Shown here: positions 1,397-51,607 of the stretch, piece after piece
Layout of the letters: every line of letters starts with the position of its first letter
Position numbering within the stretch: position 1 is the stretch's first letter
Origin: an uncultured virus (IMG/VR IMGVR_UViG_3300026522_000616)
Taxonomy: Duplodnaviria; Heunggongvirae; Uroviricota; Caudoviricetes
Virus record (IMG/VR): IMGVR_UViG_3300026522_000616
Direction: 5' to 3' (one strand)
DNA: 64,000 nucleotides
Notes under the pieces: model-generated
Told to the model about the DNA's origin: nothing
What the model saw: the letters and a program-made list of their open reading frames with translations, nothing else
Database searches by the model: none
Program-made: the position numbers and the translations under genes

Positions 1397-3781
1397 ATGG
1401 CAAAAAAACAAAAAGAAGATATAGAATCTTTAGTTGCAGAAGAAAATATCGTAGACTGTGATTTGAGAGATGAATTGCCACGCTCATATATGGATTATAC
1501 TATGTTGTCTATTATTGGACGTGCTTTGCCTGATGTTCGTGATGGATTAAAGCCTGTACAACGTAGAATTTTATATTGTTGCAAAGAAAAAGGCTATGAT
1601 AGCAATAAACCATATATTAAGAACGCTAAGATTAGTGGTGACGTAATGGGTAATTATCATCCGCATAGTTCTTGTTATGGCACGATTGCTAATATGGCTC
1701 AACCGTGGGTATATCGTTATCCACTTATTGATTTTCATGGTAACGTTGGTTCAATTGATGGAGATTCACAGGCAAGCGAGAGGTACACGGAAGGACGTTT
1801 AGCTAAAATTTCTTATGCTATTTTGGAAGATGTTTTAGATAAACATTGTGTAGAATTTCGTGATAATTATTCTGAAACGTTAAAAGAACCGATTGTATTA
1901 CCAGGTCTATTTCCTAATTTTCTAGCAAATGGATGTCCTAACGCTATTGCAGTTGGTTATACATCTTGTGTCCCTTCACATAACTTAAATGAAGTTTGTG
2001 ACGGAATTATTTATGCCATTAAGCATGATGATTTTACACTAGATGATATAATGAAAATTATTAAAGGACCAGACTTCCCTTATGGTTCGCAAATGCTTAA
2101 AAAAGGCATTAAATCACTTTATGAAACAGGGGAAGGCTCATTATCTTTTAGAGCGAATTATATCATTGAAAATAATTCTGAAAATGGTAATCCACAAATT
2201 GTATTTACGGATATGCCACCATTTTCAGATAAACCAAAACTTATTGAAAAAATCCATGATATGATAATGGAGAAAACTTTACCTAGAACAATTAGTGTTC
2301 GTGATGAATCAAAAGGTTTAGATATTCGTATTGTTATTGAATGTCAAAAAACGGCAAATATTCCATTACTCATTAAAGATTTATACGATAAAACAAAATT
2401 ACAAGCAAATGCTTCTTTCCATATGCGTGGGGTACTTGATAAAGAACTTAAATTGGTTACTTTGGTTGATTATATTCATACGTATATTTCTTTTAGAAAA
2501 GAAGTGTTAAATAATCGCTATTCTTATTTGGTAGAAGCAGATAGTAAAAAATTAAATATTCAAAAAGGTTTGGCTAAAGTAATTGATGATATTAAAACGG
2601 CAGTTAATATCATTATTGATAGCGAAACAGTTGATGATGCTAAAAAGAAATTGGTATCTAAATATGATTTGAATGAAGAACAAGTAAATTATATTTTAGA
2701 CCAAAAAACACGTTCATTAGTACATAAAGATAGAGAAGTTATTTTTAAGAAAATTAAAGAACTTGAAGATAATTTAAAACAGTATAATACATATCTTACT
2801 GATGATAATGCTATGAAGCAACTCATGATAGACCAGTTAAATGGGCTTAAAAAAGAGTTTGGTGACAAACGCAGGACTACTATTGTATCTGACTTTGAAA
2901 GCGGTTCTACGTCCTCACAGGAAGTTTCAGAAGATGTTTACGCAGTACTTTATGCGAATGGAAAAATAAATGTTTATGAAGAAGATGAATATCAGAAATT
3001 CATTGACGATAAATCGTATAAAGATAGAACAAATTTGTTTATTCAAGCAAATAAAGTAAAACGTTCTGATGATTTGCTCATTATTCGTAAAACAGGTATG
3101 GTCGAAAGAGTACCAATGAATAGTTTGCAGTATAATAATATGAAATTTGAAGATGCTATTAATTTCATTGTATTTAATACTGAATCTAAAAAAGTCTTAA
3201 TTTCTGTACTGAAAAATGGTATGGTAAAGAAAACTTTAGTTAATAAAATGAAATTCCGTATTAATAATCCAACACAGATTATTAAAGATATGGAATCGGA
3301 AATCATTATTAACAAGTTAGTAGATGATGTAAAAGATGAAACAATTACATTAGCTACAAATAATGGTTGTATTGGTAGATTTAGTGTTAATTCATTTGTT
3401 GCTACTGCTAGCGGTGCGAAAGCTATGCCTACTTGTAAATTAGAAGAAAATGATTTTATTGTTGATTGTAAAATCAGTAATGCAAGTGAAGATGACGTAA
3501 ACAAAATTCTTACAATCTTTGAATGGAATGATGGTTCATTAGGATATAAAGTAATGAAACTTTCTGACATTCTTGTAAAAGGTAGAACGGCAAGAGCACT
3601 TAATTATATTCCTAGCAAAAAGTTTAAGAACTTACTTCATATTTATATTGCAAAAGACAATTTTGTTTTGTTGAATAACAAAAATAAAGAATACATATTT
3701 GATACATATGAAGTATTTAAACGTACTGAAAAAGGTGCAGGTTTTAATAAAACAATTACTCCTACAAATTTTAATAATTAA
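1397..3781 (+). CDS. gyrA: Type IIA topoisomerase A subunit (GyrA/ParC)
   Basis: RALPDVRDGLKPVQRRIL, YHPHS, active-site ASERYTE, GPDFP; divergent beta-pinwheel CTD. Confidence 0.95.
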   Translation: MAKKQKEDIESLVAEENIVDCDLRDELPRSYMDYTMLSIIGRALPDVRDGLKPVQRRILYCCKEKGYDSNKPYIKNAKISGDVMGNYHPHSSCYGTIANMAQPWVYRYPLIDFHGNVGSIDGDSQASERYTEGRLAKISYAILEDVLDKHCVEFRDNYSETLKEPIVLPGLFPNFLANGCPNAIAVGYTSCVPSHNLNEVCDGIIYAIKHDDFTLDDIMKIIKGPDFPYGSQMLKKGIKSLYETGEGSLSFRANYIIENNSENGNPQIVFTDMPPFSDKPKLIEKIHDMIMEKTLPRTISVRDESKGLDIRIVIECQKTANIPLLIKDLYDKTKLQANASFHMRGVLDKELKLVTLVDYIHTYISFRKEVLNNRYSYLVEADSKKLNIQKGLAKVIDDIKTAVNIIIDSETVDDAKKKLVSKYDLNEEQVNYILDQKTRSLVHKDREVIFKKIKELEDNLKQYNTYLTDDNAMKQLMIDQLNGLKKEFGDKRRTTIVSDFESGSTSSQEVSEDVYAVLYANGKINVYEEDEYQKFIDDKSYKDRTNLFIQANKVKRSDDLLIIRKTGMVERVPMNSLQYNNMKFEDAINFIVFNTESKKVLISVLKNGMVKKTLVNKMKFRINNPTQIIKDMESEIIINKLVDDVKDETITLATNNGCIGRFSVNSFVATASGAKAMPTCKLEENDFIVDCKISNASEDDVNKILTIFEWNDGSLGYKVMKLSDILVKGRTARALNYIPSKKFKNLLHIYIAKDNFVLLNNKNKEYIFDTYEVFKRTEKGAGFNKTITPTNFNN

Positions 3782-12449: not shown

Positions 12450-12655
12450 ATAACGTCAAAATTATATATAAATAAGAATATATATGTATAATTTTGTTTA
12501 GAATTCTAAATTCAAAGCATCGTTAATGTGCTCACCTTAATCTTTTTAGGATACGGTATTTTAACAAATGTCATTCAACATTTGCGTATATATTTGTTTG
12601 AATTCTTCATGTTTTATGCCAATAGGAATAAATTTATTTGGTTCAATTTCTTGAT
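12450..12655 (-). ncRNA. Predicted TnpB omega-RNA (reRNA) scaffold overlapping tnpB 3' end and right end
   Basis: Position typical of TnpB guide scaffolds; hairpin at ~12515-12533 covaries with the copy at 44532-44737. Confidence 0.7.
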
Positions 12656-13862
12656 GACAGGATTTTCTCAAAACGTTTGAGAAAATCCTGTTTTTTATAT
12701 TTATAGATGCATTTAAATCTGCATTTAATTCAAATCCACAATTTTCACAACGGAAATGTTCTTGTGTTTGTCTATTCTTTTTGGAAATGTGATGACAACA
12801 ACTACATTCTTGACTTGTATATTCAGGATTTGTTAAGGAAATTGTTATTCCATATTTTTTTCCAATTCGTTCTGCAATATTTTTAATATCTACTAGTCTA
12901 ACTGCGTACATTAAACGTTTGTAATTAATATCAAATTCTTTGTTTGTAATTTTTAAATGACCTGTGAATTTGCCCAAATCTTCAAAAACTAAATGGTCAA
13001 TATTTTGCATATTACAATGTTTAAACAATTTAACTAAGCATTGTTCGACCATTGAAACGCTTCTTCTAGTGTTTTTTAAACTTTGTTGATGTTGTTTTTC
13101 AGTCATTGTGTGAGAAATATTTCTTTTCATTTTTGTGGAAACAATCTTATCATATTTTATTCTTTGTTTAATGATTTTTCTAACAAGTTTTCTATCGTAG
13201 TCAACAGAAAAACCATCTGAACATTGAAGAAGATTATGTTTTACATTTACATCAACTCCTTCAATATGATTAATAGAAGTAGAATATACTCTATTATCAT
13301 CTTCAGCAATGGTAATTTTTAATTTATTTTTACCTAATAAAGTACAAGTATATTGTTTTTGAAATTGAGATTTATTTGCACCTGTCATGGAATAAGAAAT
13401 ATTCTGTAAATCTCCATGATATTTTTCAGAATACCTAAAAGGAATACAAATTATACCTTGTTTAGGAATGTTGAAGTTGATAATTCCGTTAGTATATGTA
13501 TTTTTGCTTTCTTCTATGAAGATTTTTGTTGAAAGATTGATGCCTACAAAAGATAATTTTTTGAAAACAATTCGCTGTTTTGGTGGTTTTTTCTTTTCAT
13601 ATCTTTCATATACCTGTTTACAAATTTGTTGAAAAAATGAAGAAGAAAAATCTTTATCACGATAAATTTTCATTTCTGTGATAAATTTACTGCAAGTGAT
13701 TTTTTGTTTTTGAAAATAGTTGTTATAATAGATTTCAGAAATGAAGTTTTGATATACTTGAATTTGTTTAGCCAATTCTTCAATCTTTTTATATTTTTCC
13801 TTATTTAAACCATAAGAATAGAAAGAAATTGCTTTTTTTTGAATATTTGTGCTTAATTTCAT
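12561..13862 (-). CDS. tnpB: RNA-guided endonuclease TnpB
   Basis: RuvC-I GVDVN, RuvC-II VFEDL, YTSQECSCC..FRCENCG zinc finger, RuvC-III NADLNASINI; D-E-D triad intact. Confidence 0.95.
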   Translation of the reverse strand: MKLSTNIQKKAISFYSYGLNKEKYKKIEELAKQIQVYQNFISEIYYNNYFQKQKITCSKFITEMKIYRDKDFSSSFFQQICKQVYERYEKKKPPKQRIVFKKLSFVGINLSTKIFIEESKNTYTNGIINFNIPKQGIICIPFRYSEKYHGDLQNISYSMTGANKSQFQKQYTCTLLGKNKLKITIAEDDNRVYSTSINHIEGVDVNVKHNLLQCSDGFSVDYDRKLVRKIIKQRIKYDKIVSTKMKRNISHTMTEKQHQQSLKNTRRSVSMVEQCLVKLFKHCNMQNIDHLVFEDLGKFTGHLKITNKEFDINYKRLMYAVRLVDIKNIAERIGKKYGITISLTNPEYTSQECSCCHHISKKNRQTQEHFRCENCGFELNADLNASINIKNRIFSNVLRKSCHQEIEPNKFIPIGIKHEEFKQIYTQMLNDIC

Positions 13863-13897
13863 AATGTTTCACTTCCTTTCTTATAAAAATGTTTGAT

Positions 13898-14521
13898 TTA
13901 AGAATTTATGATTTTTTGAGCTTCTTTTAACTTTTTTCGTCTATTGCTATATAATTTCATTGAAAAATGATGAATCATAGCAATTATATCTTCTGTCAAT
14001 TCTTGTTCAAAATTTTCTTCATTAATTTTGTTGTTTAATGTTGTGATTTTGCAATCGAATTTTTTAAATATATTTTCAAAATATTTAAATCCAAATCTAC
14101 TCAATCTATCTTTATATGTGATAAAAACATTGGCAACCTCATGATTTAGAATCGAATCAACCATTTTGTTAAATTCCACTCTATTTTCATTCATACCACT
14201 AGCAATTTCACAATAAATATGGTCAATAATAAAACCATTGGAATTGCAAAAATCAAGAAGAATTTGCTTTTGTTTTAGCAAATCTTGTTTTTGTTTTTGA
14301 TTTGATACTCGACAATAAATAACGTTTTTCTTGTTTGTGGAAGAAGGTTTACTTTCATAATCAAGAAGTTTTTCAATATCTTGTTTTTTGTAAATGAATT
14401 TTCTTTCCCCAATATTTTTGTATTGAATAATTCCTTTTTTTCTCCAACGATGTAAAGTTTGTCTATTAATTCCAAATAGTTTAATAATTTCTTTTGTTGT
14501 GTAAAATTCTTTATCTAGCAT
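13898..14521 (-). CDS. tnpA: IS607 serine recombinase/transposase TnpA
   Basis: N-terminal MerR-like HTH, IYCRVS catalytic motif, EIASG, YKDRLSRFG. Read on the minus strand (ATG is the complement of 14519-14521) although the ORF track labels it +. Confidence 0.95.
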   Translation of the reverse strand: MLDKEFYTTKEIIKLFGINRQTLHRWRKKGIIQYKNIGERKFIYKKQDIEKLLDYESKPSSTNKKNVIYCRVSNQKQKQDLLKQKQILLDFCNSNGFIIDHIYCEIASGMNENRVEFNKMVDSILNHEVANVFITYKDRLSRFGFKYFENIFKKFDCKITTLNNKINEENFEQELTEDIIAMIHHFSMKLYSNRRKKLKEAQKIINS

Positions 14522-14587
14522 ATAATCATTCCTTTTTGTAACAAAAATATACTAAATAAAATATTTTATAACTGTTATCTACGAGAT

Positions 14588-14617
14588 TTGACAAAATACT
14601 TACTTGTATGCTATAAT
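14588..14617 (+). promoter_or_regulatory. sigmaA-like promoter for sigma-factor gene
   Basis: TTGACA-N18-TATAAT with extended TG. Confidence 0.75.
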
Positions 14618-14667
14618 AACTTCATAGGTTGTCATTCTATTATATAAAATATAAAAGGAGAATTACA

Positions 14668-15459
14668 TTGGATAATGAAACGTGTATAACTTATCATAAT
14701 GTTTGTATAGTAGATGGTATCGTTCCAATTGAAGATAAATATAAATTTAATCCAAATACTTGTATTTTATATCAAGAAAATAAAATTGTAAAATTAACAG
14801 AACAAGAAAAGCAAAATAGATTAAAAAATAAAAATAAAAAACGAAAAAAGCCAACCATAGAAGAAGCAGTAAGCGATTATCGAAATGGTTGTCAAGAAGC
14901 ATTTGAATATGTATATAACCATTATAAATCTAAAATAAAATATATGGCAAGTGTTAAAGCCGAAAAAGGTCATGAGGAAGAACTTTTTTCAGATATTACA
15001 ATGCAATTGTTTCAATGCATGAAAAAATATAAATTCGGTTCAGTTAAATTTAATACATTTTTTTGGCGTTGTGCTCAAAATGTAGTTGGTGTACATTTTA
15101 CTGCAAAAACAACTCAAAAAAGAAATAACATATATGGTTTTATTCCTATTGATTCAAAAGTAAATTCTGCAAAAAATGATGGTTCTATTTTGCAAGATAT
15201 TATTGAAGATAAAAGTACAGATGATTTATTTAACCAAATAGATTTTAATTGCACTTTAGAAGAATATATATTACCTTGTTTATCAGATAATAAGGACAGA
15301 ATGATTCTAAAATTGTTATCTCATGGATATATTGTTAAAGATATATGCAAAACCATTCATATGACACCAGCAGGTGTTTATTTACGATTAAAGAAAATTA
15401 GAGAAAATATAAATAATAAAATTACATATAAAGAATTACAAAAATTATTGAAACCATAA
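14668..15459 (+). CDS. Phage sigma-70-family RNA polymerase sigma factor
   Basis: Region 2-like G.QEAFE.VY..Y...EELFS.....F..M.KY...KFNTF and C-terminal HTH (GY..KDI...I.MT...VY.RL); probable TTG start after AAGGAG. Confidence 0.8.
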   Translation: MDNETCITYHNVCIVDGIVPIEDKYKFNPNTCILYQENKIVKLTEQEKQNRLKNKNKKRKKPTIEEAVSDYRNGCQEAFEYVYNHYKSKIKYMASVKAEKGHEEELFSDITMQLFQCMKKYKFGSVKFNTFFWRCAQNVVGVHFTAKTTQKRNNIYGFIPIDSKVNSAKNDGSILQDIIEDKSTDDLFNQIDFNCTLEEYILPCLSDNKDRMILKLLSHGYIVKDICKTIHMTPAGVYLRLKKIRENINNKITYKELQKLLKP

Positions 15460-40501: not shown

Positions 40502-42133
40502 ATGTCTGATGGGTTTGTAAATCTTCATGTACATAGCGAATATTCTTTATTGGATGGCATGATTAAAGTAGATGATTTAGTTAAAAAAACATTAGAATTT
40601 AATCAAATAGCCAGCGTGATTACAGACCATGGCAATGCCTACACAATTCCTGACCATTTTAAAGAAGCAAAGAAACAAGGACAACACGCGATTGCAGGTG
40701 TTGAATTATATACGGTAAAAGACCATACGCTAAAAGGTAAAGATGAAGGAGAAACAGAAAATGGTGCAAAACGAAACCATTTTCTTCTTTTAGCGAAAAA
40801 TAAAACAGGTTATCAAAAAATGTGTCGTATTCTTTCTAAAGGATATACGGAAGGATTTTATTATCGTCCTCGCGTAGATAATGGAATTATGGAAGAATAT
40901 TTAGACCCTGATGGAAAAGAATCAGATGTTATTGGTAGTTCAGCTTGCCTGGCCGGAATTCTGGCACAATCTATTTTAAAAGGCGATATAGAAACCGCTG
41001 AAAAATTTGCCAAATATTATTATAAATTATTTGGTGGAAATTTTTATTTGGAAATTCAACCAACACAAACATATGAACAGTATGTTGTCAATAAGGAATT
41101 ACTTGATATGTCAAAAAGATTAAATATTCCTCTAATTGCCACAACAGATGCACATTATCTGAAAAAAGAAGATAAGAAAACACATGATGTATTACTTTGT
41201 CTACAAAGTCATAGTTTGATTTCAGACCCAAATCGTTGGAGTTTCCCAGGTAATACATATTATATTATGAATAAAGAAGAACTTTGTTCATATTTTAAAC
41301 GCGAATATCAGTATAAATTGATTAAGAAAAAGAATACTAAGAAAAATGCCACATCTGAATTTACATATGAATATGTACATGATTATGATGGTATTAAATT
41401 TAGTGACCCTGAAAAAACAATCAATAATTTTGTTTCTGTAGAAAAAGAAGGACATTTTAGCTATGCAGATTTGAATCAAGAACAGATTGAAGAAGCAATT
41501 GCAGAAACAGAAAATATAGCAAATCAATGTACGTATGATATGGAATTTGGTAAACATTATTTACCAAAAATTCATATTCCTGTTGAGGACGTTAATTTTA
41601 GTAAATGGCGTTCAAAATTGAAACATCAAGGAAAACCGAATGAAGATTATTTAAAATATCTTTGTATTTTAGGATTAAAAGAACGTGGATTAACGGATAA
41701 AGTATATCGTAAAAGATTAAATTATGAATTGGGAATTATTAATGATATGGACTTTCCCGACTACTTTTTAATTTATTATGATATTGCTAAATTCTGTCAT
41801 GATAATAATATTCCATTCGGACCAGGTCGTGGTTGCTTTATTCCGAATGAATTAGTAAAAACAAATAATACAATTAAAAACATTCAAGATATTCAAATTG
41901 GAGATAAAGTATATTGCCATGATGAATTATTACATGATGTAATGGCAAAACATGAATATGACGTAGATGAAGATTTAATATCATTATCATGTAATAACGA
42001 AAAAATTGATGGTGTAACAAAAGACCATAAAATTTATGCTATTAAAAAAGATGATTTTGATAAAGGTATACGAGAACCAAAATGGTATTCTGCCAATGAA
42101 TTAGATATTGGTGATTATATTTGTAAATTATAA
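40502..42133 (+). CDS. dnaE: DNA polymerase III alpha, N-terminal half (PHP + start of palm) fused to split intein N-fragment
   Basis: FVNLHVHSEYSLLDG, ITDHG, GVELY, YYRPRVD, ATTDAHY, RLNYEL..I..MDFPDYFLI, GPGRG then intein. Confidence 0.95.
   Translation: MSDGFVNLHVHSEYSLLDGMIKVDDLVKKTLEFNQIASVITDHGNAYTIPDHFKEAKKQGQHAIAGVELYTVKDHTLKGKDEGETENGAKRNHFLLLAKNKTGYQKMCRILSKGYTEGFYYRPRVDNGIMEEYLDPDGKESDVIGSSACLAGILAQSILKGDIETAEKFAKYYYKLFGGNFYLEIQPTQTYEQYVVNKELLDMSKRLNIPLIATTDAHYLKKEDKKTHDVLLCLQSHSLISDPNRWSFPGNTYYIMNKEELCSYFKREYQYKLIKKKNTKKNATSEFTYEYVHDYDGIKFSDPEKTINNFVSVEKEGHFSYADLNQEQIEEAIAETENIANQCTYDMEFGKHYLPKIHIPVEDVNFSKWRSKLKHQGKPNEDYLKYLCILGLKERGLTDKVYRKRLNYELGIINDMDFPDYFLIYYDIAKFCHDNNIPFGPGRGCFIPNELVKTNNTIKNIQDIQIGDKVYCHDELLHDVMAKHEYDVDEDLISLSCNNEKIDGVTKDHKIYAIKKDDFDKGIREPKWYSANELDIGDYICKL
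41834..42130 (+). other. Split intein N-fragment (99 aa)
   Basis: Starts CFIPNELV.T....K.IQDIQIGD.V (block A); VTKDHKIY (block B TxxH); W..A.EL.IGD.I then stop. Confidence 0.92.
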
Positions 42134-42139
42134 AAAATT

Positions 42140-42172
42140 AAATGGATGTGCTTATTAAAGCACATCCATTTT
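42140..42172. terminator. Terminator after dnaE N-half
   Basis: AAATGGATGTGCTT-ATTA-AAGCACATCCATTT. Confidence 0.85.
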
Positions 42173-42651
42173 TAAATATATTCCATAATTGTATTATGAA
42201 TTTCTGTTAGTGCATAGTTCTGTTTTTCATATGGAAGATTAATAAATACAATATCACAGTTGTATTCTTTCGTGTTTGTATCTTGCCAATCAATGTTTTT
42301 GTTGTTAATTGTCGTATTTTCAATATATTCAAAAGATATATTGTGGTCGTTGTTTACTAATAGTACAAAAAATACCATTTTACCATTGTTCATATACTGT
42401 AGCCAATTTTTATTAGTATTTGAATTAAATGGAATATAGTGAAATTTTTCTTTCTGTTCTAATGCCATTAAACTAAATTTATTGTTTAATTGTGGTGCAT
42501 TTGGATACTCCATAAGATAAATATTTGTGTTATTATCATACATTTTGTTTAGAATGTCCGTAAATTCTTTATGAATAAGTTTAATTTCTTCTTTAGATAA
42601 TTGTGAATCGTTAATGAGATTTGTTTTTTTATGTTTTGTAAAAGAAAACAT
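42172..42651 (-). CDS. Hypothetical protein (paralogue of 43956..44459)
   Basis: Shared L(S/T)KEE.K..H.....L...Y.N....Y(L/I)M(E/D)Y...FV...N..H...Y.C....N.P.EK....IH. Confidence 0.7.
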   Translation of the reverse strand: MFSFTKHKKTNLINDSQLSKEEIKLIHKEFTDILNKMYDNNTNIYLMEYPNAPQLNNKFSLMALEQKEKFHYIPFNSNTNKNWLQYMNNGKMVFFVLLVNNDHNISFEYIENTTINNKNIDWQDTNTKEYNCDIVFINLPYEKQNYALTEIHNTIMEYI

Positions 42652-42713
42652 GATGAAAACCTCCGAATTATATTATATATATTATATATGAACTTTTTTT
42701 CTTCTTTGATTAT

Positions 42714-42742
42714 ATAGTAACATATTTTTTGAAAATTGTCAA
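42714..42742 (-). promoter_or_regulatory. sigmaA-like promoter for 42172..42651
   Basis: TTGACA-N17-TACTAT with extended TG on the minus strand. Confidence 0.7.
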
Positions 42743-42773
42743 CACTATTTTGAAAAAGGTTGTGAAAAATTTT

Positions 42774-43925
42774 ATGAAACGATTATCAAAATCATATCAA
42801 ACGGATGGATTTAATATTAATACAGATACAGAATTGAAAGCAATACAGGCAAAATATCCTGAATGTAGTAAAGATAAACTTGTTGATTTTGAAAAAAGTG
42901 GAATGAGCGGGTTTGGAGAAGTTGGATATAAATTTAATGAACATAATAATGATTTATCTGTTTATGTAATTGAATCTTTTGTATTTATGGATGTAGATAA
43001 AAGTCAAGGTCAACAAATAAATAAATTAGTATATATAGCTCAAAAATTAGATGTTAGCAATGAAAATATTGATAATGAACCAATGTATGTAAGTGATGCA
43101 TTTGTAAATGAAGGTAAAAATACATTTAATTTACAAGCAAGAAAACGTTATTTAGCGAAATTCCAAACCAATTTAAATATTAAACCATTAAAGAATGAAT
43201 GTAAAAATTATCAAGATTTAAAAACAGAATTAATTAAAGAACTTGGTAAAGAAAAGGTAGAACAAGGATTAGCTTATGAACAAGGAAGGACGTTAGAAGA
43301 TGCACATAAAGAATTTAATAAATTGTCATCATTTAAACGTTTAGTTAAATCTACTTTATTTGATGGTCAACCAATGAATGAAAAAGATTTAGAAGAAGAA
43401 TTAAAAATAAAAAAATTAAAGTCAATAAAAGTACAAATTAATACAGAACTACAATTACAATTTAGTGAACCTTTATTTGGAAATGTTTCTGATGAAGAAT
43501 ATAAAGATGTTAATAATGCTATTGACATAATTGGATTAAATAATATAGAAGATAAATGTTCAGAAATATCAAGTGAAATTTTGTTTGGGTCTAAATGTTC
43601 ATTTACTATTCAACGTAGTATGAATAATAGTGTTGAATTATTGGTTAGTATTTTTAGTGGAAAATATGTTGATTTTGATAAAAAATGGATAAAAGCTACT
43701 CCTACACAATTTAAATCATTAGTTCGCAAATGGTATAAACAATGTATGCCTTTAATAAAGGAAGCAAAAGATGATATTTATAATTCTATAGAAAATAAAA
43801 ATGATATAATTGAAAATGAAGATATTCCAATAAATGAAGTGGAAAATTCATTGATAATAAAGCATAGAAGAATTTCCAAATATGAATTTATAAAACAATA
43901 TGGCAATGGTGAACTAAATATATAA
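42774..43925 (+). CDS. Hypothetical protein (MKRL start)
   Basis: Long ORF; probable ATG 42774; internal KRLVKS. Confidence 0.65.
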   Translation: MKRLSKSYQTDGFNINTDTELKAIQAKYPECSKDKLVDFEKSGMSGFGEVGYKFNEHNNDLSVYVIESFVFMDVDKSQGQQINKLVYIAQKLDVSNENIDNEPMYVSDAFVNEGKNTFNLQARKRYLAKFQTNLNIKPLKNECKNYQDLKTELIKELGKEKVEQGLAYEQGRTLEDAHKEFNKLSSFKRLVKSTLFDGQPMNEKDLEEELKIKKLKSIKVQINTELQLQFSEPLFGNVSDEEYKDVNNAIDIIGLNNIEDKCSEISSEILFGSKCSFTIQRSMNNSVELLVSIFSGKYVDFDKKWIKATPTQFKSLVRKWYKQCMPLIKEAKDDIYNSIENKNDIIENEDIPINEVENSLIIKHRRISKYEFIKQYGNGELNI

Positions 43926-43955
43926 AAAAAATAGAGGATGCATCCTCTATTTTTT

Positions 43956-44459
43956 TTATATATTTTTGTCTACAAATTCAAAAAGTGCTTCGTGAATACT
44001 TCCCATAGTATCATGAAGTTTTTCAATTGGTGCATTTACTTGAAACAGATTGCATGAATAATATTTATTTTCATCACTATTATATAGGTTCGTATTCTTT
44101 ACATAAGAAATATTTAACTGATGATTGTAGTTAATTCCAAATACGAAAATTGTAATTTCACCATTTTTATACATTTTGAGAAAATGATAAAAAAATAATT
44201 GTCTATCTAATCTTTTATATTCTGTATTCGGTAATTCTTCTAATACATATAAATTTGCACCATCGGAAAATTTTGTAAAAGATGTATAATCCATAATGTA
44301 TTTATGGATTTTTTTATTTTTATAAATATTTTTTAATGCAAATGAAGTTTTATCATGTACATATTTTTTTTCTTCTTTTGTAAGGTGTGTTGGTGCGAAA
44401 ATGATTTTATTATCATTTGCATTATTGTTTGATTTTTTACTAAAAAATGGAATATGCAT
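43956..44459 (-). CDS. Hypothetical protein (paralogue of 42172..42651)
   Basis: Alignable by eye over most of its length. Confidence 0.7.
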   Translation of the reverse strand: MHIPFFSKKSNNNANDNKIIFAPTHLTKEEKKYVHDKTSFALKNIYKNKKIHKYIMDYTSFTKFSDGANLYVLEELPNTEYKRLDRQLFFYHFLKMYKNGEITIFVFGINYNHQLNISYVKNTNLYNSDENKYYSCNLFQVNAPIEKLHDTMGSIHEALFEFVDKNI

Positions 44460-44531
44460 GATGTAATTACCTCTTATTGTAACTTTATATAATATATAGA
44501 GATTTCTTTTTTTTAGTTTAATTATATTATG

Positions 44532-44737
44532 ATAACGTCAAAATTACATATAAATAAGAATAAATATGTATATTTTTGTTTAGAATTCTAAATTCAAGGT
44601 ATCGTTAATATACCTACCTTAATCTTTTTAGGATGCGGTATTTTGACGAATGTTATTTAACATTTGTGCATATATTTGTTTGAATTCTTCATGTTTTATG
44701 CCAATAGGAATGAATTTATTTGATTCAATTTCTTGAT
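44532..44737 (-). mobile_element. Non-autonomous IS607 derivative consisting only of the omega-RNA/right-end region
   Basis: Colinear, closely similar copy of 12450-12655; TGATAA at both junctions (44530-44535, 44734-44739). Confidence 0.9.
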
Positions 44738-44788
44738 AATATAATTTTGTCAACAATTTTAAAAAAATTTTAAGGGGCGGTAATAAAA

Positions 44789-44970
44789 ATGAAACGACTT
44801 GTAGCCATTGCTGTAAATACAGAAGAGCTTGGTATTTCAACAGAAGAAGAATTGAAATGGATTCAAAATGATAAAATGTATTTAACTAAAGATAATATAC
44901 ATAATTATGAAAAAAAATAATAATAAAGGTGGTTACGGTTTGTATATGAAAATGGTGGTAATCCATTAGA
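44789..44970 (+). pseudogene. Truncated/frameshifted paralogue of 42774..43925
   Basis: MKRLVAIAVNTEELGISTEEELKWIQ..TKD aligns with MKRLSKSYQTDGFNINTDTELKAIQ..SKD; stop at 44918-44920 right after an A8 run. Confidence 0.55.
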
Positions 44971-44997
44971 AGAAATTCCCGTATAAAGGAGTATATT

Positions 44998-45708
44998 ATG
45001 AATCGAATTTATTGTTTACATGATAATATATTAGACTTATTAAAGAAGAAAATAGATAATACAGATATACTTACATTTGATGATGGGCATTACTCTGTTT
45101 ATAAATATAGATATATATTAGATGATATAGATTGCAAAAAAATATTGTTTGTAACACCTAGTTATATATCTATGGATAGACGAGAAGAAGAACCAGATAT
45201 GTCTATATATTATCAATGGTATTATCGTGTTATGAATAAATCTCCTTGGTTAAATATTTATGAAATAGAAGATTTAATTAAAAATCATAATATAGAATTA
45301 GGGATGCATTCTTACTATCATGATTTTGTATATGTAAAAGGACAGAATGATGAAGATAGAATGTGGAGAATGTATAAAATATCTAAAGATATAAATAAAA
45401 TGAAAATTTTAAATCGTATGTACAGTATACATTCTAGTTTATCTGTTAAAGGTATAGATGTGTTAAATGGTTGTTTATATCATAGAAACGATATTCAATT
45501 TGAAGAATTTATTAAATCAGATACATTTATGTGTGTAGATTGGTTTAAAAAATATTTTGGAGTTCCTAAAAAATATGCTTATCCATTTTTTGAAGGTTCT
45601 CCTACTTTAGATTTTGAATTATTTAAATATGGCATTAAAAAAGAAAATATATATGGTAAACGAGAAAATATTAAAAATGCTATTGACAAAAACGATAAAA
45701 TAAGATAG
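44998..45708 (+). CDS. Polysaccharide deacetylase (NodB-like) family protein
   Basis: LTFDDG, ELGMHSYYH, YAYPF. Confidence 0.8.
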   Translation: MNRIYCLHDNILDLLKKKIDNTDILTFDDGHYSVYKYRYILDDIDCKKILFVTPSYISMDRREEEPDMSIYYQWYYRVMNKSPWLNIYEIEDLIKNHNIELGMHSYYHDFVYVKGQNDEDRMWRMYKISKDINKMKILNRMYSIHSSLSVKGIDVLNGCLYHRNDIQFEEFIKSDTFMCVDWFKKYFGVPKKYAYPFFEGSPTLDFELFKYGIKKENIYGKRENIKNAIDKNDKIR

Positions 45709-45711
45709 AAT
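45683..45711 (+). promoter_or_regulatory. sigmaA-like promoter
   Basis: TTGACA-N17-TAGAAT. Confidence 0.65.
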
Positions 45712-45735
45712 TATATAAAAAAGGAGGTGATTTTC

Positions 45736-46035
45736 ATGAGCTTGCTTTTTGGTGGTTCATCTTATACGGATTTAATTAAAGATAATAATCGTGATTTGTG
45801 GTCAACTACGCCAATTATTTTTCCAACGGTCACACAATTAAAATCAATGGACGAATGGATTAGTTGTGTGAATAAGATTATGTATTTGGTTTTTGATGCT
45901 TTTTATTCTTGCCAATCATCAGTTGAATGTAAAGTACCTGTTGAATATAAAAAAGATATTATTCAATATTTAAAAAATTCAGGATATGATTGTTACGAGA
46001 AAGATGAAAACATTCTCTTGATTAGTGGGTGGTAA
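45736..46035 (+). CDS. Hypothetical protein
   Basis: Strong RBS AGGAGGTG. Confidence 0.65.
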   Translation: MSLLFGGSSYTDLIKDNNRDLWSTTPIIFPTVTQLKSMDEWISCVNKIMYLVFDAFYSCQSSVECKVPVEYKKDIIQYLKNSGYDCYEKDENILLISGW

Positions 46036-46036
46036 T

Positions 46037-46258
46037 ATGGCTAAGAAACGTTTGGTAAAACGTACTGTTAATTCTCCATATCATGCGTTTTATGGATATG
46101 GTTATTATCCGTGGTATTGGGGAACAGGTTATGGATATGACGATGTAGATTATGATTTAGATAATTCTCCTTACGACAATTCATCTTTTGATGGTTATTC
46201 CACAGATGTATTTGACGGTGGATTTGATGGAGGTTTTGATGGTGGGTGTGATATATGA
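46037..46258 (+). CDS. Small Tyr/Gly/Asp-rich low-complexity protein
   Basis: KKRLVKR basic start, YGYGYYPWYWG, (FDGG)3. Confidence 0.65.
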   Translation: MAKKRLVKRTVNSPYHAFYGYGYYPWYWGTGYGYDDVDYDLDNSPYDNSSFDGYSTDVFDGGFDGGFDGGCDI

Positions 46259-47019
46259 ATATAGTAAAAGCTAAATTAATTCAATTGGCAGAAGAAGAAC
46301 AAAAGCAGGAAGAAAATAAAGAATATACATTTGACGAATTAAACAAACTTTGTCAAGATAAATATGGAGAAGATTTGCAACAAATAGATACTCCTGAACA
46401 AGAGCAGGAAATATTTGGTGAAGAAAAAGAAGGACACACAGGTTATCCATATTTTGTATGTGGAGACAAAGTTTATAATAATTTAGATGATGTAAAATCA
46501 GATGTAGTAGAAGAACAAAAAACTACACAGGAGTTTAATTCCGCAGGTACTTCCTTAAATCAAATTCCTGCACTACATAAAAAACTTGTAAATAAAAATA
46601 TGTTGAATGGAGTCAATTTTGATAATGGTGCAGGTAAATTTGATAAAGCTACAAATTTCCTAGCAGATAATGATATTCAAAATGTAAGATATGACCCATA
46701 TAATCTTCCTGAAGAAGTTAATAAACAGGCAGATAATTATGTAGGACAATGTGATACATCTACGTGTGCGAATGTACTAAATGTTATTAAAGAAGATTCT
46801 GCAAAAATTGATGTATTAAAACGTTCTTATGATATGTTAAAACCTGGTGGCACATTATATATTTCTGTTTATGAAGGAAATCGTAGTGGTATTGGAAAAG
46901 AAAGTAAACCTGGTTGTTGGCAAGAGAATAAGAAATTAAAAGATTATGTTCCAATTGTTGAAAAAGTATTTCCAAAAGTAACTATTTCTAATGGCATGAT
47001 TGAAGCTACAAAGGAGTAA
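46255..47019 (+). CDS. Class I SAM-dependent methyltransferase
   Basis: NFDNGAGK motif I, YDPYN, NVLNVI, LKPGGTLYISVY. Confidence 0.8.
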   Translation: MNIVKAKLIQLAEEEQKQEENKEYTFDELNKLCQDKYGEDLQQIDTPEQEQEIFGEEKEGHTGYPYFVCGDKVYNNLDDVKSDVVEEQKTTQEFNSAGTSLNQIPALHKKLVNKNMLNGVNFDNGAGKFDKATNFLADNDIQNVRYDPYNLPEEVNKQADNYVGQCDTSTCANVLNVIKEDSAKIDVLKRSYDMLKPGGTLYISVYEGNRSGIGKESKPGCWQENKKLKDYVPIVEKVFPKVTISNGMIEATKE

Positions 47020-47021
47020 AA

Positions 47022-47339
47022 ATGGTTATTGAACGAAAAGTATTAAATAAGATTGCAGGGATTATTTGTGCTATTTTTATAACAATTACTTTAATTTCTG
47101 TTGTTTTAATGTTATCTCCAAACGTATTAACAAAACATTACGGTGGGGAATATACAATTGATTTACCGCAAGGAAGAAAATTAGTTCCTTATACAGTTCA
47201 ATGGGAACAAAAAAGTTCAAATATTTGGTATTTAACTGAGCCAATGAACGAAACAGATGAACCTAAAGAATATCAATTTCATGAATCTTCTAATTTAGGT
47301 ATTCTTCAAGGAACAATTACTTTTAAAGAACATAAATAA
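47022..47339 (+). CDS. Membrane-anchored hypothetical protein
   Basis: N-terminal TM; K.YGG...I.LP.G.KL....W....IWYLT.PM. Confidence 0.65.
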   Translation: MVIERKVLNKIAGIICAIFITITLISVVLMLSPNVLTKHYGGEYTIDLPQGRKLVPYTVQWEQKSSNIWYLTEPMNETDEPKEYQFHESSNLGILQGTITFKEHK

Positions 47340-47399
47340 TATAATAAATAGACAAGGCAAAAACCTTGTCTATTTTACTATATCGGTAGGTGATATATA

Positions 47400-47597
47400 A
47401 TGAATTTGCAAGAAGCGTATGATTTTATAGTACAGTATTGTAAAAAGAATAATTGTGATAATTGCCCTTTTTATGAAACAAATAAAACTTATCCTGAAGA
47501 AGTTTGTTTGTTAGCCATAGGTGTAGCACCGTGTTTTTGGGATGATATAAAAAATGAAAAAAATAAAAAACAATATCTTAGAAATAGATATTATTGA
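47400..47597 (+). CDS. Small Cys-rich hypothetical protein
   Basis: C....C..CPF....C.L....PC.W. Confidence 0.6.
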   Translation: MNLQEAYDFIVQYCKKNNCDNCPFYETNKTYPEEVCLLAIGVAPCFWDDIKNEKNKKQYLRNRYY

Positions 47598-48447
47598 TGG
47601 TTGTAATGCGAAATGTGTTTGTTGCCCTCGTGGATTAGGATTATTAGGTAATTCCATGACTAAAATGGACTATGAACTATATAAAAAAGTTATAGATAAA
47701 GCCCATAATATAGGAATTAATGAAATTGTTTTGTTTAGTTGGAGTGAACCTTTTTTACATCCGCAATTATTTAATTTTTGTAAATACGCAAAACAATATC
47801 ATATGAAAGTAGATTTGTCAACAAATTTATCATTAAAAAATATAGATTTTGAAAATATATTGCCTTATGTAGATAGTTTGATTATTTCTGTTAGTGGTTT
47901 TTATCAATCAATATATGAAATTAATCATAAAAATTGTAATGTAGATTTAGTAAAAGAAAATATATTGAAAATTGGAAATGTGAATATTCCAACATATATT
48001 CAATTGAGATATTTTGTCTATGATTATAATCAAGAAGAAATTCAACTATGGAAAGATTTTTTGCCAAAAAATATTCATTTTTGGAAATGTGAAGGTAATG
48101 ATAATCCATTACAAAGTATAGAAGCGATGAAACAAAATCAATTGCCTGAAGAATATTTTGGAAAAATAGAGTATGGTAAAAACGAATATAGAGACAATAT
48201 TAGAATGGATTATTGTGATTTAACTAGAATGATTACGTTAGATTGGAAAGCAGATGAATATTTGTGTTGTGAAAAAATATATGATAAATCTATTAAAATA
48301 GGTAATTTCTTAAAAGATGATATATATGAAATGCAAAAGAAAAAATTAATGCATAAAGAATGTGATATATGTCATAGAAAAAAATCATATCTATCTTTTT
48401 TATCTAAAAGCGATTTTAATCGAATAAAAGAAAAAACCTTCTTGTAA
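47554..48447 (+). CDS. Radical SAM protein with C-terminal SPASM/twitch-like cysteines
   Basis: CNAKCVCCP (CxxxCxxC), WSEPFLHP, STN; C-terminal C...YLCC...IGN...C..C. Confidence 0.88.
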   Translation: MKKIKNNILEIDIIDGCNAKCVCCPRGLGLLGNSMTKMDYELYKKVIDKAHNIGINEIVLFSWSEPFLHPQLFNFCKYAKQYHMKVDLSTNLSLKNIDFENILPYVDSLIISVSGFYQSIYEINHKNCNVDLVKENILKIGNVNIPTYIQLRYFVYDYNQEEIQLWKDFLPKNIHFWKCEGNDNPLQSIEAMKQNQLPEEYFGKIEYGKNEYRDNIRMDYCDLTRMITLDWKADEYLCCEKIYDKSIKIGNFLKDDIYEMQKKKLMHKECDICHRKKSYLSFLSKSDFNRIKEKTFL

Positions 48448-48470
48448 TAGTTTTGAAAAAATGATATACT
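48442..48470 (+). promoter_or_regulatory. sigmaA-like promoter for dnaE C-half
   Basis: TTGTAA-N17-TATACT with extended TG; RBS GAAGGGAG downstream. Confidence 0.65.
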
Positions 48471-48489
48471 AACTCTAAGAAGGGAGTGA

Positions 48490-48690
48490 GTGCCTATGCA
48501 CTTTAAGCAGATAACAGATAAGTCAACTTATCATTATCAAGGAAAAGTGTATGATTTAACTGTTGATGGAGCACACTCATATAATGTCAATAATTTTATT
48601 GTACATAATAGTGGTGCAGGTTCATTAGTTAATCATGCGCTAGGTATTACACAGATTAATCCATTGGATTATGACCTTATCTTTGAGCGT
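48490..48690 (+). CDS. dnaE: dnaE C-half exon 1: split intein C-fragment (48490-48609) + SGAGSLV..ALGIT..NPL.Y.L.FER
   Basis: VYDLTVDGAHSY.VNNFIVHN|S (intein blocks F/G, Ser+1) followed by conserved DnaE sequence. Confidence 0.92.
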
Positions 48691-49042
48691 AAACAAATGT
48701 TTTGTCAGGTAACAAATTGCGCTCGTAAAATCTATTGAATTGCTGGAAAGTTCTAAAGCCTATATAACTACAACGTGATTCGTGAGAATGAGCGTGAATG
48801 TTACGAAAGTAGAAAAAATATATAGGATTACCCATGCTGAAATAATAACATACGGTGACGTAGTGCTAAAGGTGAATAAATGGATAATCAGCATCTAAGT
48901 ATCTTAGTGATAAGATAAAAGTTCAACGACTAAAGAAAGTATACTTATAAAATATAAGCAGAAATCTTATTAGCGGTAGACATGTTTACAACAAACATGG
49001 TGATATAGTCTAATTTTTGCATAAAAGTGCAAATTTTTAATG
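48691..49042 (+). ncRNA. Group I intron (ORF-less, 352 nt) in dnaE
   Basis: Exon ends GAGCGU and pairs with IGS GCGCUC (48719-48724, U-G wobble); P AATTGCTGGAAA, Q AATCAGCA, R GTTCAACGACTA, S GATATAGTC; terminal G; splicing gives FER|FLNPDR. Confidence 0.93.
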
Positions 49043-50125
49043 TTTTTGAACCCTGACCGGGGACATTTGCCCGATATTGACAGTGATTTTGGTCCTACTC
49101 GTGGTTCAGAAGTATTTGAACATCTGAATAAATTGTATGGAAAAGAAAATTGTTGTAATATCGTAACATTTTCTAATCTCCAAACAAAAGCAATTATCAA
49201 AGATGTTTGTAGAGCTTTTGAAGTACCACTTGCGGAAGTAAATGCAATTACGAAATTAGTTCCTAAAGATGCAAAAGAGTTTAAAGACTTGTTGGAAGTA
49301 GATGAAATAAAACAATTCTTTAATAAACATCAAGGAATCTATCAACATTGTGAAAAACTATGTGGCTCACCGAGACATCATTCACAACATCCTGCGGGGA
49401 TTTGTGTATTGCCATTTCCTGTAACAGATATTCTTCCTGTAGAAAATGCAGTACCAACAGTTAATAATTTTGTTGGGTTAATGTCTCAATATGGTAAAGA
49501 GAACGTTGAAGCAGTCGGAGCTGTCAAGTTAGATGTGTTACGTTTAATCAACATTGAATCCCTATATAATCAAGTGGATTTAGTAAAAAAAGAATATGGA
49601 ATAGATTTAAAACTTGCTGATATTCCATTGGATGATAAAAATGCATGGGATTTAATTGATTCATGTGATACAATGGGTATTTTCCAAATGGAAGGTGCTA
49701 TTGGCAAAGACATAATCAAACAAATTAATCCTAGAAATATTGAGGAACTTTCAGCAGTCAATGCATTTGTGCGACCAGGTACAAGTGGATTAGAGAATTA
49801 CTGTGAAGCCAAAAAAGACCCATCTAAAATTACAAAATATCATCCAAAATTAGATAAATGGCTTGCTCCTACATACGGGTCCATCGTGTATCAAGAGGAG
49901 ATTCTTGGTCTAATTTCAGAAATAATGGGGGTTTCTTTTGGTAGAGCAGATATTTATCGTAGAGCACTTGAAAAACCAAATAAAAAAGGTAACAAAGAAC
50001 TTTTTGAAGATTTCTTGAATAATGGTGTGCAACGTGGCATTGAAAATGGTATACCAAAAGAAGCAGGAGAAAGAATACAGAAAGCAATTATAGATAATGC
50101 AGGTTATCTCTTTAATAAAAGCCAT
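49043..50125 (+). CDS. dnaE: dnaE C-half exon 2 (catalytic palm/fingers)
   Basis: FLNPDRGHLPDIDSDF, HPAGI, KLDVL, GIFQME, RPG, YQEEI, YLFNKSH. Confidence 0.95.
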
Positions 50126-50443
50126 TAACAAAAATGTTGGGTGGCACGGTAGTGTGAATTGCCGTTAAAAATCTATGAAATTGCGGGGACACCTTAAAGC
50201 TATATTGACTACAACGGAATTTGTAAAAATAAACGTGATAGTTGCGAAAGCAGAAAAAATAATATGGATGATATATGGTTAAATCCTAAGTATTGTTGTA
50301 ATAGGCAATCCGCATCCAAATATCCATTTATATGGATAGAGGTTCAGAGAGTATAATATAGACATCTTTATTATAAAGATGATTGTGTACTCCAAACCAT
50401 AACACATAAATTTTGTGGTCTGTGAAAGCAGATGTGGTAAAAG
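50126..50443 (+). ncRNA. Group I intron (ORF-less, 318 nt) in dnaE
   Basis: Exon ends GCCAU and pairs with GUGGC (50141-50145); P AATTGCGGGGA, Q AATCCGCA, R GTTCAGAGAGTA pairing with TACTC; terminal G; splicing gives FNKSH|SIAYSYISYWTAYIKANFP. Confidence 0.93.
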
Positions 50444-51607
50444 TCAATTGCATATAGTTATATCTCATATTGGACTGCGTATATTAAAGCCAATTTCCCA
50501 TTGGTATTTTATATTTCATTATTTAATACTGAACCTGTTTCTAAATTGCAAGACTGTATTCAAGAAGCAAAAAAACATGGAATTAAAATTGAACCGCCTG
50601 ATATGTCAAAATCTAAATTTGAATCTACCATTGAAGATAAAGAAAACATGGTAATTCGTATGGGATTGAATTGTGTAAAAGGTATTGGTGATAAAGCCGT
50701 TGAAGAAATTACACCAAACCAACCTTATACAGATTTCCATGATTATTTTGAACGTGCAGGTAAAGGTGCAGGTAAAGGTGTAGTTGAAGCAGGAATTAAA
50801 ATTGGTGCTTTTGAATTTATGCCATTGATTGTTGATAAATCTTTAATTAAAGATAATCATTTAACAATTGAAGAAAATGATGAAAATACGGTTAAAGTAT
50901 ATATGAATCGTTCTCAACAAATGGTATGGTATCAATCGTATTTAGATAATAAGTCTAAAAAATCTGTTCCTAATTATGCAATACCAAAAGATATTTTGAG
51001 TGGAGAAATTCAAATGAAATTCGCAGATGATTTTGAGAATGAAAATGTAATTATTGAAAAAGATAATACAATTATTATTCCTGAAAATCATTTGGAAGAA
51101 TTTGAATTAAAATTAAATAATGTGGAACAATATAAAACTAGGAAGAAACCTAAAGGAAAATTCAAGGTTCAAAAAGATACTAGAAAGATTTTACCTGAAG
51201 AAAAAGCCTTTGAAAAATCATATGATGATATTTGTCATGTAAAAGAAAATAAAATTCAACAATACCTAGATGATATGGATAATTTTGAATTATCATTTAT
51301 TCCACATCCCTTTGAAAAAGCAAACCATTTAATTCCTTTATTGGAAAACGTGGAAGATGGTAAAAAAGTTAGAACGGCAGGAATTGTTGTAGATATTATT
51401 ACAAGACAGACAAAAAAAGGAAAGCCTTTTTATAATGTTGTTCTACAAACACCTAGAGAAAAACAAAGATTGACTGTATGGAGTAATATATTTATTCAAA
51501 ATAAAGAATTGCTTCAAAAAAATTCTTTGGTAAAAGTAATTGGTACAAAAGGATTTGGTGGATTAACTGCTGAAGCATTTGTTCCTTCAAAACAGAATAA
51601 ACATTAA
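50444..51607 (+). CDS. dnaE: dnaE C-half exon 3 (HhH and OB-fold region)
   Basis: SIAY..ISY.TAY.KAN.P, PPD.SKS, IRMGLNCVKGIG, C-terminal OB fold. Confidence 0.92.
   Translation, partial: SIAYSYISYWTAYIKANFPLVFYISLFNTEPVSKLQDCIQEAKKHGIKIEPPDMSKSKFESTIEDKENMVIRMGLNCVKGIGDKAVEEITPNQPYTDFHDYFERAGKGAGKGVVEAGIKIGAFEFMPLIVDKSLIKDNHLTIEENDENTVKVYMNRSQQMVWYQSYLDNKSKKSVPNYAIPKDILSGEIQMKFADDFENENVIIEKDNTIIIPENHLEEFELKLNNVEQYKTRKKPKGKFKVQKDTRKILPEEKAFEKSYDDICHVKENKIQQYLDDMDNFELSFIPHPFEKANHLIPLLENVEDGKKVRTAGIVVDIITRQTKKGKPFYNVVLQTPREKQRLTVWSNIFIQNKELLQKNSLVKVIGTKGFGGLTAEAFVPSKQNKH

Follow-up and report, generated by a model that had tools for sequence, protein, structure and literature searches.

For one member of the IS607 family, homing by TnpB at donor joints that bear no scar has been demonstrated experimentally (10.1101/2023.11.20.567912). 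Gene-less derivatives of IS200/IS605 elements (PATE-like) carry omega-RNAs for which TnpB must be supplied in trans, as set out in the accessible text of Meers et al. (PMC10055086). In a survey of RAGATH-18 RNAs, 10,258 of 16,029 adjoined TnpB and stand-alone copies (about a third) were common; the same source, in its accessible sections, gives strict 5-nt TAMs, AGGAG or GAGGG, for IS607 TnpBs with RAGATH-18-derived reRNAs (PMC11061315). The solo vrRNAs of phage VIPR systems, the function of which was tested, act in mobile-element conflicts according to the available portion of that report (10.64898/2026.10.15.759431). TnpB homing, gene-less omega-RNA elements and the presence of many IS607-type guide RNAs away from TnpB have all been described previously. 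In the literature that we searched on TnpB in jumbo, huge and mega-phages and on IS607 MITEs we found no phage omega-RNA consisting of a right end (RE) only, and the main text of a paper on 360-402-kb gut phages, as distinct from its supplements, mentions neither TnpB nor transposons.

Here we describe such an RE-only copy, the solo copy, in the window, by which we mean the whole stretch of 64,000 nucleotides analysed from an uncultured virus (IMG/VR record IMGVR_UViG_3300026522_000616). The original prediction for this DNA held that the solo copy is a stand-alone omega-RNA copy with a new flank, lying between the −35 and −10 boxes of a promoter, that an allele lacking it should exist, and that it serves as a second TnpB guide in trans. 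The anatomy stood up to analysis and the predicted empty allele was found; the second guide in trans fared less well, and we consider it somewhat unlikely. With modest confidence, we lean towards the view that the solo copy is an RE-only remnant of an IS607-family element that disrupts a promoter in a large cattle-gut phage. The locus adds to the described systems a clean natural pair of alleles, occupied and empty, in one phage lineage. The nuclease gene lies at another place in that genome, and sibling copies show how such remnants arise.

A complete IS607-type element in the window

The element to which the solo copy is related has the following features.

12450..14618, minus strand: complete IS607-type element, 2169 bp, with ends ATAACGTC...TATAATA (window plus orientation)
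12561..13862, minus strand: tnpB, 433 aa; D204, E294, D382 and four Cys invariant in 16 homologues
13898..14521, minus strand: tnpA, 207 aa, serine recombinase with N-terminal HTH
12450..12705, minus strand: omega-RNA region of the full IS, including a 17-bp 5′ hairpin (12656-12692)
14588..14617, plus strand: outward promoter-like site in the left end (LE), TTGACA-18-TATAAT, 12 of 12 positions, with TG before the −10; not in the solo copy

Both proteins place it in the IS607 family. TnpA is a serine recombinase with an N-terminal MerR-like HTH (Pfam Resolvase, 1.2e-20; HTH_17, 3e-9) and scored 176.6 bits, relative to a cutoff of 110, with the NCBIfam IS607 family transposase model NF033518. 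Downstream of tnpA lies a TnpB with RuvC and zinc ribbon, which matched Pfam Cas12f1-like_TNB (4.4e-17), aligned over its C-terminal part to solved Cas12f/TnpB structures, and reached 95.3 bits with NCBIfam guided_TnpB, just below the cutoff of 100. The invariant cysteines in the 16-sequence alignment are C353, C356, C372 and C375; by the known motifs, we take D204, E294 and D382 to be the RuvC triad and the four cysteines to be the zinc ribbon. Judged by these residues, the resident TnpB looks catalytically intact. Rfam gave no match anywhere in the window at the gathering score, and the group I intron that marks the left end of an IStron was among the families covered.

Comparison of the copies described below fixed the ends of the element. 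In every copy the RE opened with ATAACGTCAAAA, although the DNA beyond it differed (seven distinct flanks), and the LE likewise closed with TATAATA against four distinct flanks; locus L034 has another LE-like end, which was read by eye. ATA is present at both ends of the element. Neither a target-site duplication nor terminal inverted repeats were apparent. The promoter-like site in the LE directly precedes a sigma-factor-like gene in the window (14629..15459; PHROG 1740, E 9e-13), and in mini-element L014 (2780-2811) it lies 19 bp upstream of a 169-aa gene; the IS may act as a mobile promoter. The 17-bp hairpin at 12656-12692, in the 3′ end of tnpB, is followed on the plus strand by a T run and is thus terminator-like for transcription entering from the RE; the same hairpin serves as helix 1 in the predicted fold of the omega-RNA region.

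The TnpB family is common, with 183 proteins at E <= 1e-5, many of them at about 65% identity on contigs of 350-405 kb. A viral TnpB profile scan yielded two further loci at 43-45% identity, which were left out of the comparisons. Among 185,579 species genomes there was no match to a 24-mer from the RE, and there was no TnpB relative among 53 candidate stretches.

A solo right end with a new flank

The original prediction placed a copy of the tnpB tail and the IS607 right end at 44532-44737, and the alignment agreed: this stretch and 12450-12655 aligned without gaps and were identical at 188 of 206 bases (blastn E 1e-83).

44532..44737, minus strand: solo RE copy of the IS607-type element, 206 nt homologous to 12450-12655
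44532..44645, minus strand: non-coding omega-RNA core of the solo copy, the counterpart of 12450-12563, spanning the tnpB stop and everything up to the RE tip
44646..44737, minus strand: tnpB 3′-end remnant (about 31 codons), reading ...QEIESNKFIPIGIKHEEFKQIYAQMLNNIRQNTAS and then a stop, with four substitutions unique to the solo copy
44512..44531, minus strand: would-be guide flank (CATAATATAATTAAAC...), overlapping the −10 box
44530..44535: left TGATAA direct repeat, containing the ATA with which every RE opens
44734..44739: right TGATAA direct repeat, located at the inner junction, CTTGAT/AA

The solo copy thus combines 114 nt of non-coding sequence from beyond the tnpB stop with 92 nt, or about 31 codons, from the 3′ end of tnpB, and the LE is absent from it. 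The DNA inserted at the locus amounts to 204 bp in any register within the 6-bp repeat. No substitution in the non-coding core was unique to the solo copy, and with an nhmmer profile of the core it scored 103.3 bits versus 100.7 for the resident IS. Beyond the RE boundary, the 31 bases at the solo copy and at the full IS were unrelated (11 of 31 matches, chance level); the guide-equivalent flank, which the original prediction described as differing between the copies, is AGCACATTTTACAATA at the full IS versus CATAATATAATTAAAC at the solo copy. The only exact match to the 44512..44531 flank within the window was the flank itself, and a search of the window for a second guide target gave near-matches at the chance level (10 versus 10.4 expected). 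No further RE copies were found within the window by blastn (word size 7) or with the nhmmer core profile.

The insert splits a promoter, and a relative carries the empty site

The solo insert separates a TTGACA −35 box from a TATAAT −10 box on the minus strand.

44748..44753, minus strand: −35 box TTGACA of the split promoter, native phage DNA, also in the empty allele
44521..44526, minus strand: −10 box TATAAT of the split promoter
43956..44459, minus strand: 167-aa gene downstream of the split promoter, ORF intact
42714..42742, minus strand: promoter of the paralogous cassette 42172..42651 (159 aa), intact TTGACA-17-TACTAT

When the 204 bp were removed in silico, the minus strand read TTGACA (44753-44748), a 17-nt spacer aaattatattatcataa and TATAAT (44526-44521). 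The prediction that removal would restore such a promoter was thus borne out by the sequence itself, and also by an allele found in nature. Among contigs from four public runs that we aligned to window positions 43400-45400 (X6, X8, X11, and X16), a 901-nt DNA contig from a landfill metagenome (X11, record 3) covered 43927-44531 and 44736-45034, directly joined. It skips exactly 204 bases between 44531 and 44736, where four letters fit either side, and it carries ATTATATTATGATAATATAAT, in which the minus-strand TTGACA-17-TATAAT is intact. Its flanks differed from the window by 15 letters and five gaps over 605 nt and by four letters over 299 nt, a divergence of about 1-3%. An insert-free arrangement was also seen in L011, where a homologue of the 167-aa gene (64% identical) is preceded at the equivalent place by TTGACA-17-TACACT and which shares the divergent intergenic region and a conserved leader with the window locus. 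A search of relatives for the empty allele had been suggested with the original prediction, and it therefore succeeded in both a close and a more distant relative. Since both of these are empty, comparison of the alleles indicates that the 204-bp solo insert is a real insertion and the derived state relative to an ancestral uninterrupted promoter. To the right of 44737 the DNA is native: the empty allele contains it, and it shows synteny with L011.

The occupied allele was also found in other DNA. A 2900-nt contig from pig gut (X16, record 11) begins within the insert and crosses the inner junction, so that the occupied allele is common to strains about 1.5% apart in the flanks; of the 13 differences in this record, eight were listed and none of these eight falls in the insert. 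The 5-kb stretch around the locus matched 20 runs among the matches listed, from 14 studies, mostly of bovine gut. A blastn search of window positions 43900-45400 against 50,697 phage records gave no match.

The restored promoter had further been said to match that of the paralogous cassette at 42714-42742. The intact TTGACA and the 17-nt spacing of that promoter agreed with the claim; its −10, TACTAT rather than TATAAT, did not. The two cassette proteins are paralogues (27% identity, E 5e-14).

Because the insert parts the −35 from the −10, the 167-aa gene is left without its consensus promoter. The remaining −35 (44748..44753) now faces AATTGA at the right spacing. Five promoter-like sites were found near the insert versus 7.0 ± 2.7 in shuffles, none of them above chance, and the best candidate on the minus strand was TTTAAA-16-TATTAT (9 of 12 positions). 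We considered whether the insert has been kept because it rewires expression, by silencing or retiming the 167-aa gene or by providing signals to the divergent plus-strand genes, and has no role as an RNA guide. A split consensus promoter above an ORF that is nonetheless intact in the window, and an insert shared by strains about 1.5% apart, would fit such a role, as would the promoter-like sites in IS ends and the state of the adjoining plus-strand gene at 44789..44920, which is already a 43-aa stump, so that the divergent unit is being remodelled. However, the absence of any substitute promoter above chance near the insert argues against rewiring, the 167-aa gene had no match in Pfam or PHROGs, and the data are as compatible with drift as with selection; we regard this explanation as very improbable. 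If the insert is inert, as we are inclined to think, the solo copy is an IS scar of the ordinary sort, by which a promoter was inactivated.

Several other properties of the region were observed. The empty site (44521-44531 joined to 44736-44746) is a perfect 21-bp palindrome, ATTATATTAT-G-ATAATATAAT, which presents a TATAAT facing each way between the divergent genes. The X11 contig lacks one base at 44442, in a homopolymer region near the 5′ end of the 167-aa gene, and three at 43956; the gene may be frameshifted in that strain, or the contig may be in error. The 43-aa ORF (44789..44920, plus strand), divergent from the split promoter, is all that remains here of a 179-aa gene, of which L011 has an intact version (2326..2865, minus strand); the neighbourhood is decaying. 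The solo locus lies within a gene island of about 6.3 kb that splits the phage dnaE (Pol III alpha; window 40502-51607). The N-terminal part of dnaE, 40502..42133 (PHP and the start of the NTPase domain), ends GPGRG/CFIPNELV..., like the N half of an intein; an intein C end and extein (...FIVHN/SGAGSLVNHALGITQ...) resume in the open frame 48490..48738. The extein is then interrupted again, for about 330 bp, and its next parts lie at 49040..50128 and 50501..51607.

A decay series of right-end-bearing loci

When metagenome contigs were scanned with a 20-mer, 14 loci were returned, namely eight true copies and six chance hits without RE context. Two of the eight true copies were on the window's own contig and one was in IMG/VR genome G002, in which we found a second, more diverged copy; the independent RE-bearing loci then number eight in total. 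A viral scan with an RE-tip pattern gave eight loci, five of them chance hits. Because the search pattern lies in the RE, all copies necessarily retain it, and RE retention carries no weight. The eight loci are as follows.

12450..14618, minus strand: the complete element of the window
L024: intact tnpB and LE, without tnpA
L026: internal tnpB deletion
L014, 2455-2811, 357 bp: gene-less mini-element with both ends
L023, 2455-2805 (the same as L007, 2958-3308), 351 bp: gene-less mini-element with both ends
L034, minus strand from 1587: gene-less mini-element with both ends
Solo copy (206 nt) and L015 (about 660 nt): the two RE-anchored loci without LE

The three gene-less mini-elements (351-395 bp) lie in other phage contigs. 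They retain both ends, as non-autonomous elements of the MITE or PATE type do, whereas the solo copy does not. G002, a 98% complete phage genome, carries two of these mini-elements but no TnpB or TnpA of this IS family. The search for further omega-RNA-only copies that the original prediction also called for yielded one more RE-anchored copy without an LE, L015, of a different length. In L015, positions 1908-2453 form an open 181-aa C-terminal half of TnpB that starts from an internal Met exactly at the junction.

Origin of the remnant and of its inner junction

The solo copy and the resident RE are 91% identical, while the flanks differ by only 1-3% between strains. The solo tnpB tail runs past the position of the resident stop to end ...RQNTAS, as compared with ...KQNTVS in the intact TnpB of L024 and ...NDIC in the resident. 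The degree of identity and the different tail argue that the solo copy was not derived from the resident IS; we infer from them that the remnant came from a different IS variant.

At the inner junction, CTTGAT/AA, the copy shares four to six bases (TGAT/TGATAA) with the target, and the likeness continues into the native DNA beyond it.

44738..44768: native flank resembling the IS interior at 12656-12686, 21 of 31 matches in register

Among random pairs of 31-mers from the window, 4 of 200,000 had at least 21 matches, and when the flank was compared with all window positions, at least 21 matches occurred at 10 of 63,969. This homeology is not of IS origin, since the flank is present in the empty allele. 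It probably set the position of the inner junction. About 0.35 such homeology sites would be expected along a 2169-bp IS, so that the break point can be explained without selection for the guide RNA alone. At the L015 junction no homeology was found (8 of 31), indicating that homeology is not a general rule for these remnants; the internal deletion of L014 also lies at a short shared stretch.

An IS607-family element with a serine TnpA and a TnpB thus inserted at ATA in the spacer of a sigma-70-like promoter, and what is left is 204 bp comprising the omega-RNA core and 31 tnpB codons, the LE, tnpA and most of tnpB having been lost. We propose that the inner junction arose by joining guided by homeology or microhomology, and two routes may be envisaged. 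In one, the full element would insert and a deletion would then occur between the IS interior and the similar native flank; in the other, the element would be copied from the RE inward, copying would stop early, and the product would anneal at the similar flank. By either route the truncation point would be an accident rather than a position selected to preserve a guide RNA, and the remnant would be mostly inert.

TnpA itself could instead have made the remnant, if the RE (or LE) recombined with an internal pseudo-site, CTTG-AT-GACAGG, so that tnpB, tnpA and LE were deleted as a circle or a 204-bp mini-circle integrated at TG-AT-AA. Strand exchange by IS607 TnpA takes place at a 2-bp core and leaves no duplication, as described in the accessible portion of the study (10.1101/2023.11.20.567912), and an AT or ATA is common to the RE tip, the internal site and the target; the intact state of the native DNA right up to the point of insertion would also fit. 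However, the sequence just inside the junction does not evidently resemble the end of the LE (local alignment score 20), and the 21/31 flank homeology is superfluous to a TnpA model but expected for annealing-based joining. The short shared stretch at the internal deletion of L014 is a further point against. We therefore think an origin by TnpA improbable and prefer accidental, annealing-based joining.

RNA structure, constraint and a possible guide in trans

If transcribed, the solo RNA could be loaded by the resident TnpB, since the scaffold core is still complete. The further step taken by the original prediction was that the solo copy is a trans-acting second guide which would direct the phage TnpB to the promoter-intact allele, for example in a co-infecting relative. 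On this reading it would be a working orphan omega-RNA, a minus-strand transcript loaded in trans by the resident TnpB (the gene for which lies about 32 kb away), and would lead to cleavage of that allele; recombinational repair would then transfer the inserted DNA to the empty allele by homing, or damage to the rival would result. We rate this as possible, with the balance of the following evidence against it.

An RNAalifold consensus of the eight copies contained six helices, with 97.7% of cells paired versus 33-52% in slid controls, which also gave lower covariation scores. Two pairs in helix 5 had changes on both sides (AU/GC 4:4 and UA/CG 6:2). For these eight related sequences only, the covariation score was 0.087 versus 0.065 in shuffles and was reached by none of 500; such covariation supports, without proving, a structured RNA. 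For a guide in trans it is favourable that the solo non-coding core is complete, with all predicted pairs intact and co-variation in helix 5, and that the IS607 TnpBs characterised so far have reRNAs with no overlap with the coding sequence (PMC11061315). The fold of the solo region as a whole points the other way. While the omega-RNA region of the full IS folded well beyond shuffles (z −5.6), the solo region alone did no better than shuffles (z −1.66, 11 of 200), because the 17-bp 5′ hairpin (12656-12692; helix 1), which L014 and L023 keep, is missing. With E values of up to 1 admitted, neither the L014 RE nor the L024 RE matched an Rfam family, RAGATH-18 included.

Substitution counts provided a measure of constraint. 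In the gene-less copies, copy-specific changes numbered 14/258 in the coding tail versus 1/345 in the non-coding core (Fisher p 5e-5), whereas in the tnpB-bearing copies the rates in tail and core were equal (3/267 versus 4/345). These counts show the non-coding core to matter to the IS family. For the solo copy alone, the figures were 4/92 in the tail and 0/114 in the core (Fisher p 0.038); as the changes may predate truncation, this is weak evidence for constraint in place on the core of a copy that does not transpose. A core free of copy-specific changes speaks for a guide and, like the slightly higher profile score of that core, fits continued constraint and youth equally well. Against a guide, 11 of the 114 core positions are not the same in the solo and resident scaffolds, and, as described above, the solo copy did not come from the resident IS; in favour of one, the catalytic and zinc residues of the resident TnpB are invariant.

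Promoter scores near the insert were not above chance, the best being 9 of 12, which counts against a guide. RNA-library contigs identical to the window crossed 44682-44737 in two studies (X6, record 16; X8, record 25), but such contigs carry neither strand, start nor level, and DNA carry-over is possible. We rejected as RNA evidence both a gap in X6 cover at 43936-44270 and contig breaks at 44682; the breaks occur there because of words shared with the full IS, into the sequence of which records 17 and 26 run.

The target side of the proposal was examined at the empty allele, which exists in nature and matches the would-be guide: X11 carries a perfectly matching candidate target, and none of its listed differences from the window falls in the would-be guide stretch, 44507-44531. 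Next to the solo target stands TAT, the same as at all five sites of LE-bearing elements, which is a point in favour. Those five sites share the motif A-N-N-T-A-T and the solo site departs from it, since six bases before the guide (by eye) there is A at five of five LE-bearing sites, T at the solo site and C at the RE tip; cleavage would need a TAM that admits TATATTAT, and the T is a point against it. The RE tip itself ends in GTTAT; with a short TAM of the TAT type, the occupied locus would accordingly be exposed as well. If the A six bases before the guide belongs to the TAM, the occupied locus is spared and the solo target is spared too; if it does not, a TAT-only TAM would expose occupied loci themselves. 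Two further points weigh against a guide in trans, namely that the position of the inner junction appears to have been set by chance homeology and not by an omega-RNA boundary, and that another RE-anchored remnant, L015, has a different length. There is precedent in its favour: experiments on a different element have demonstrated that an IS607 TnpB can cause homing at donor joints (10.1101/2023.11.20.567912), and the available text on gene-less IS200/605 omega-RNA elements has them needing TnpB in trans (PMC10055086).

In the fullest form of the proposal, an active TnpB of the phage and its orphan guide would target the intact promoter allele of relatives, cutting it and then converting or crippling the rival in mixed infections. 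We consider this doubtful. If it is true, a 204-bp passenger with its linked markers would be driven through the phage population, and a transposon nuclease would have been re-used for phage-against-phage competition, with both alleles occurring in nature. An active solo copy would provide a first example of a TnpB guide that serves in phage competition while detached from its transposon, and would show how stand-alone guides can arise by accident. The reading that we favour remains that of an RE-only remnant which disrupts a promoter.

Comparison with known systems

P-element deletion derivatives are internally deleted transposon copies that arise from interrupted gap repair. The loci described here resemble them in forming a series of copies with intact ends, in which the internal break points vary and coincide with short homologies; the parallel is confined to mechanism. 

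The comparisons with RNA-guided systems that follow draw on the accessible parts of each report. Like the solo vrRNAs of VIPR systems (10.64898/2026.10.15.759431), which are found on phages or satellites, the solo copy would encode a guide RNA apart from its effector; unlike them, it is known from sequence alone, and effector and RNA are unrelated to those of VIPR. As in RAGATH-18 reRNAs (PMC11061315), the guide scaffold lies in a non-coding stretch after tnpB. The RE here, however, matches neither the Rfam RAGATH-18 model nor any other Rfam family, and, in contrast to the strict-TAM RAGATH-18 TnpBs, the sites share only TAT and an A three bases upstream. 

There is also a likeness to IS607-family elements such as the CboIStron studied by Zedaveinyte et al. 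(10.1101/2023.11.20.567912): the resident element has an IS607-type TnpA and a TnpB and defined ends, and its structured RNA region runs to the RE tip, with the solo copy homologous to it and next to a different flank. It departs from them in that ATA instead of GG is common to its ends, that the window gave no match to a group I intron, and that its host is a large phage; the solo copy, for its part, is without TnpB, TnpA and LE. With PATEs, in the available description (PMC10055086), the solo copy shares a guide-RNA module that stands apart from the nuclease gene, the nuclease being encoded elsewhere in the same genome. It differs in having only the RE, where PATEs keep both ends and can be mobilised, and in belonging to a serine rather than a Y1 transposase family. 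On that description, the true analogues of PATEs and MITEs among the loci studied here are the gene-less mini-elements L014, L023, and L034.
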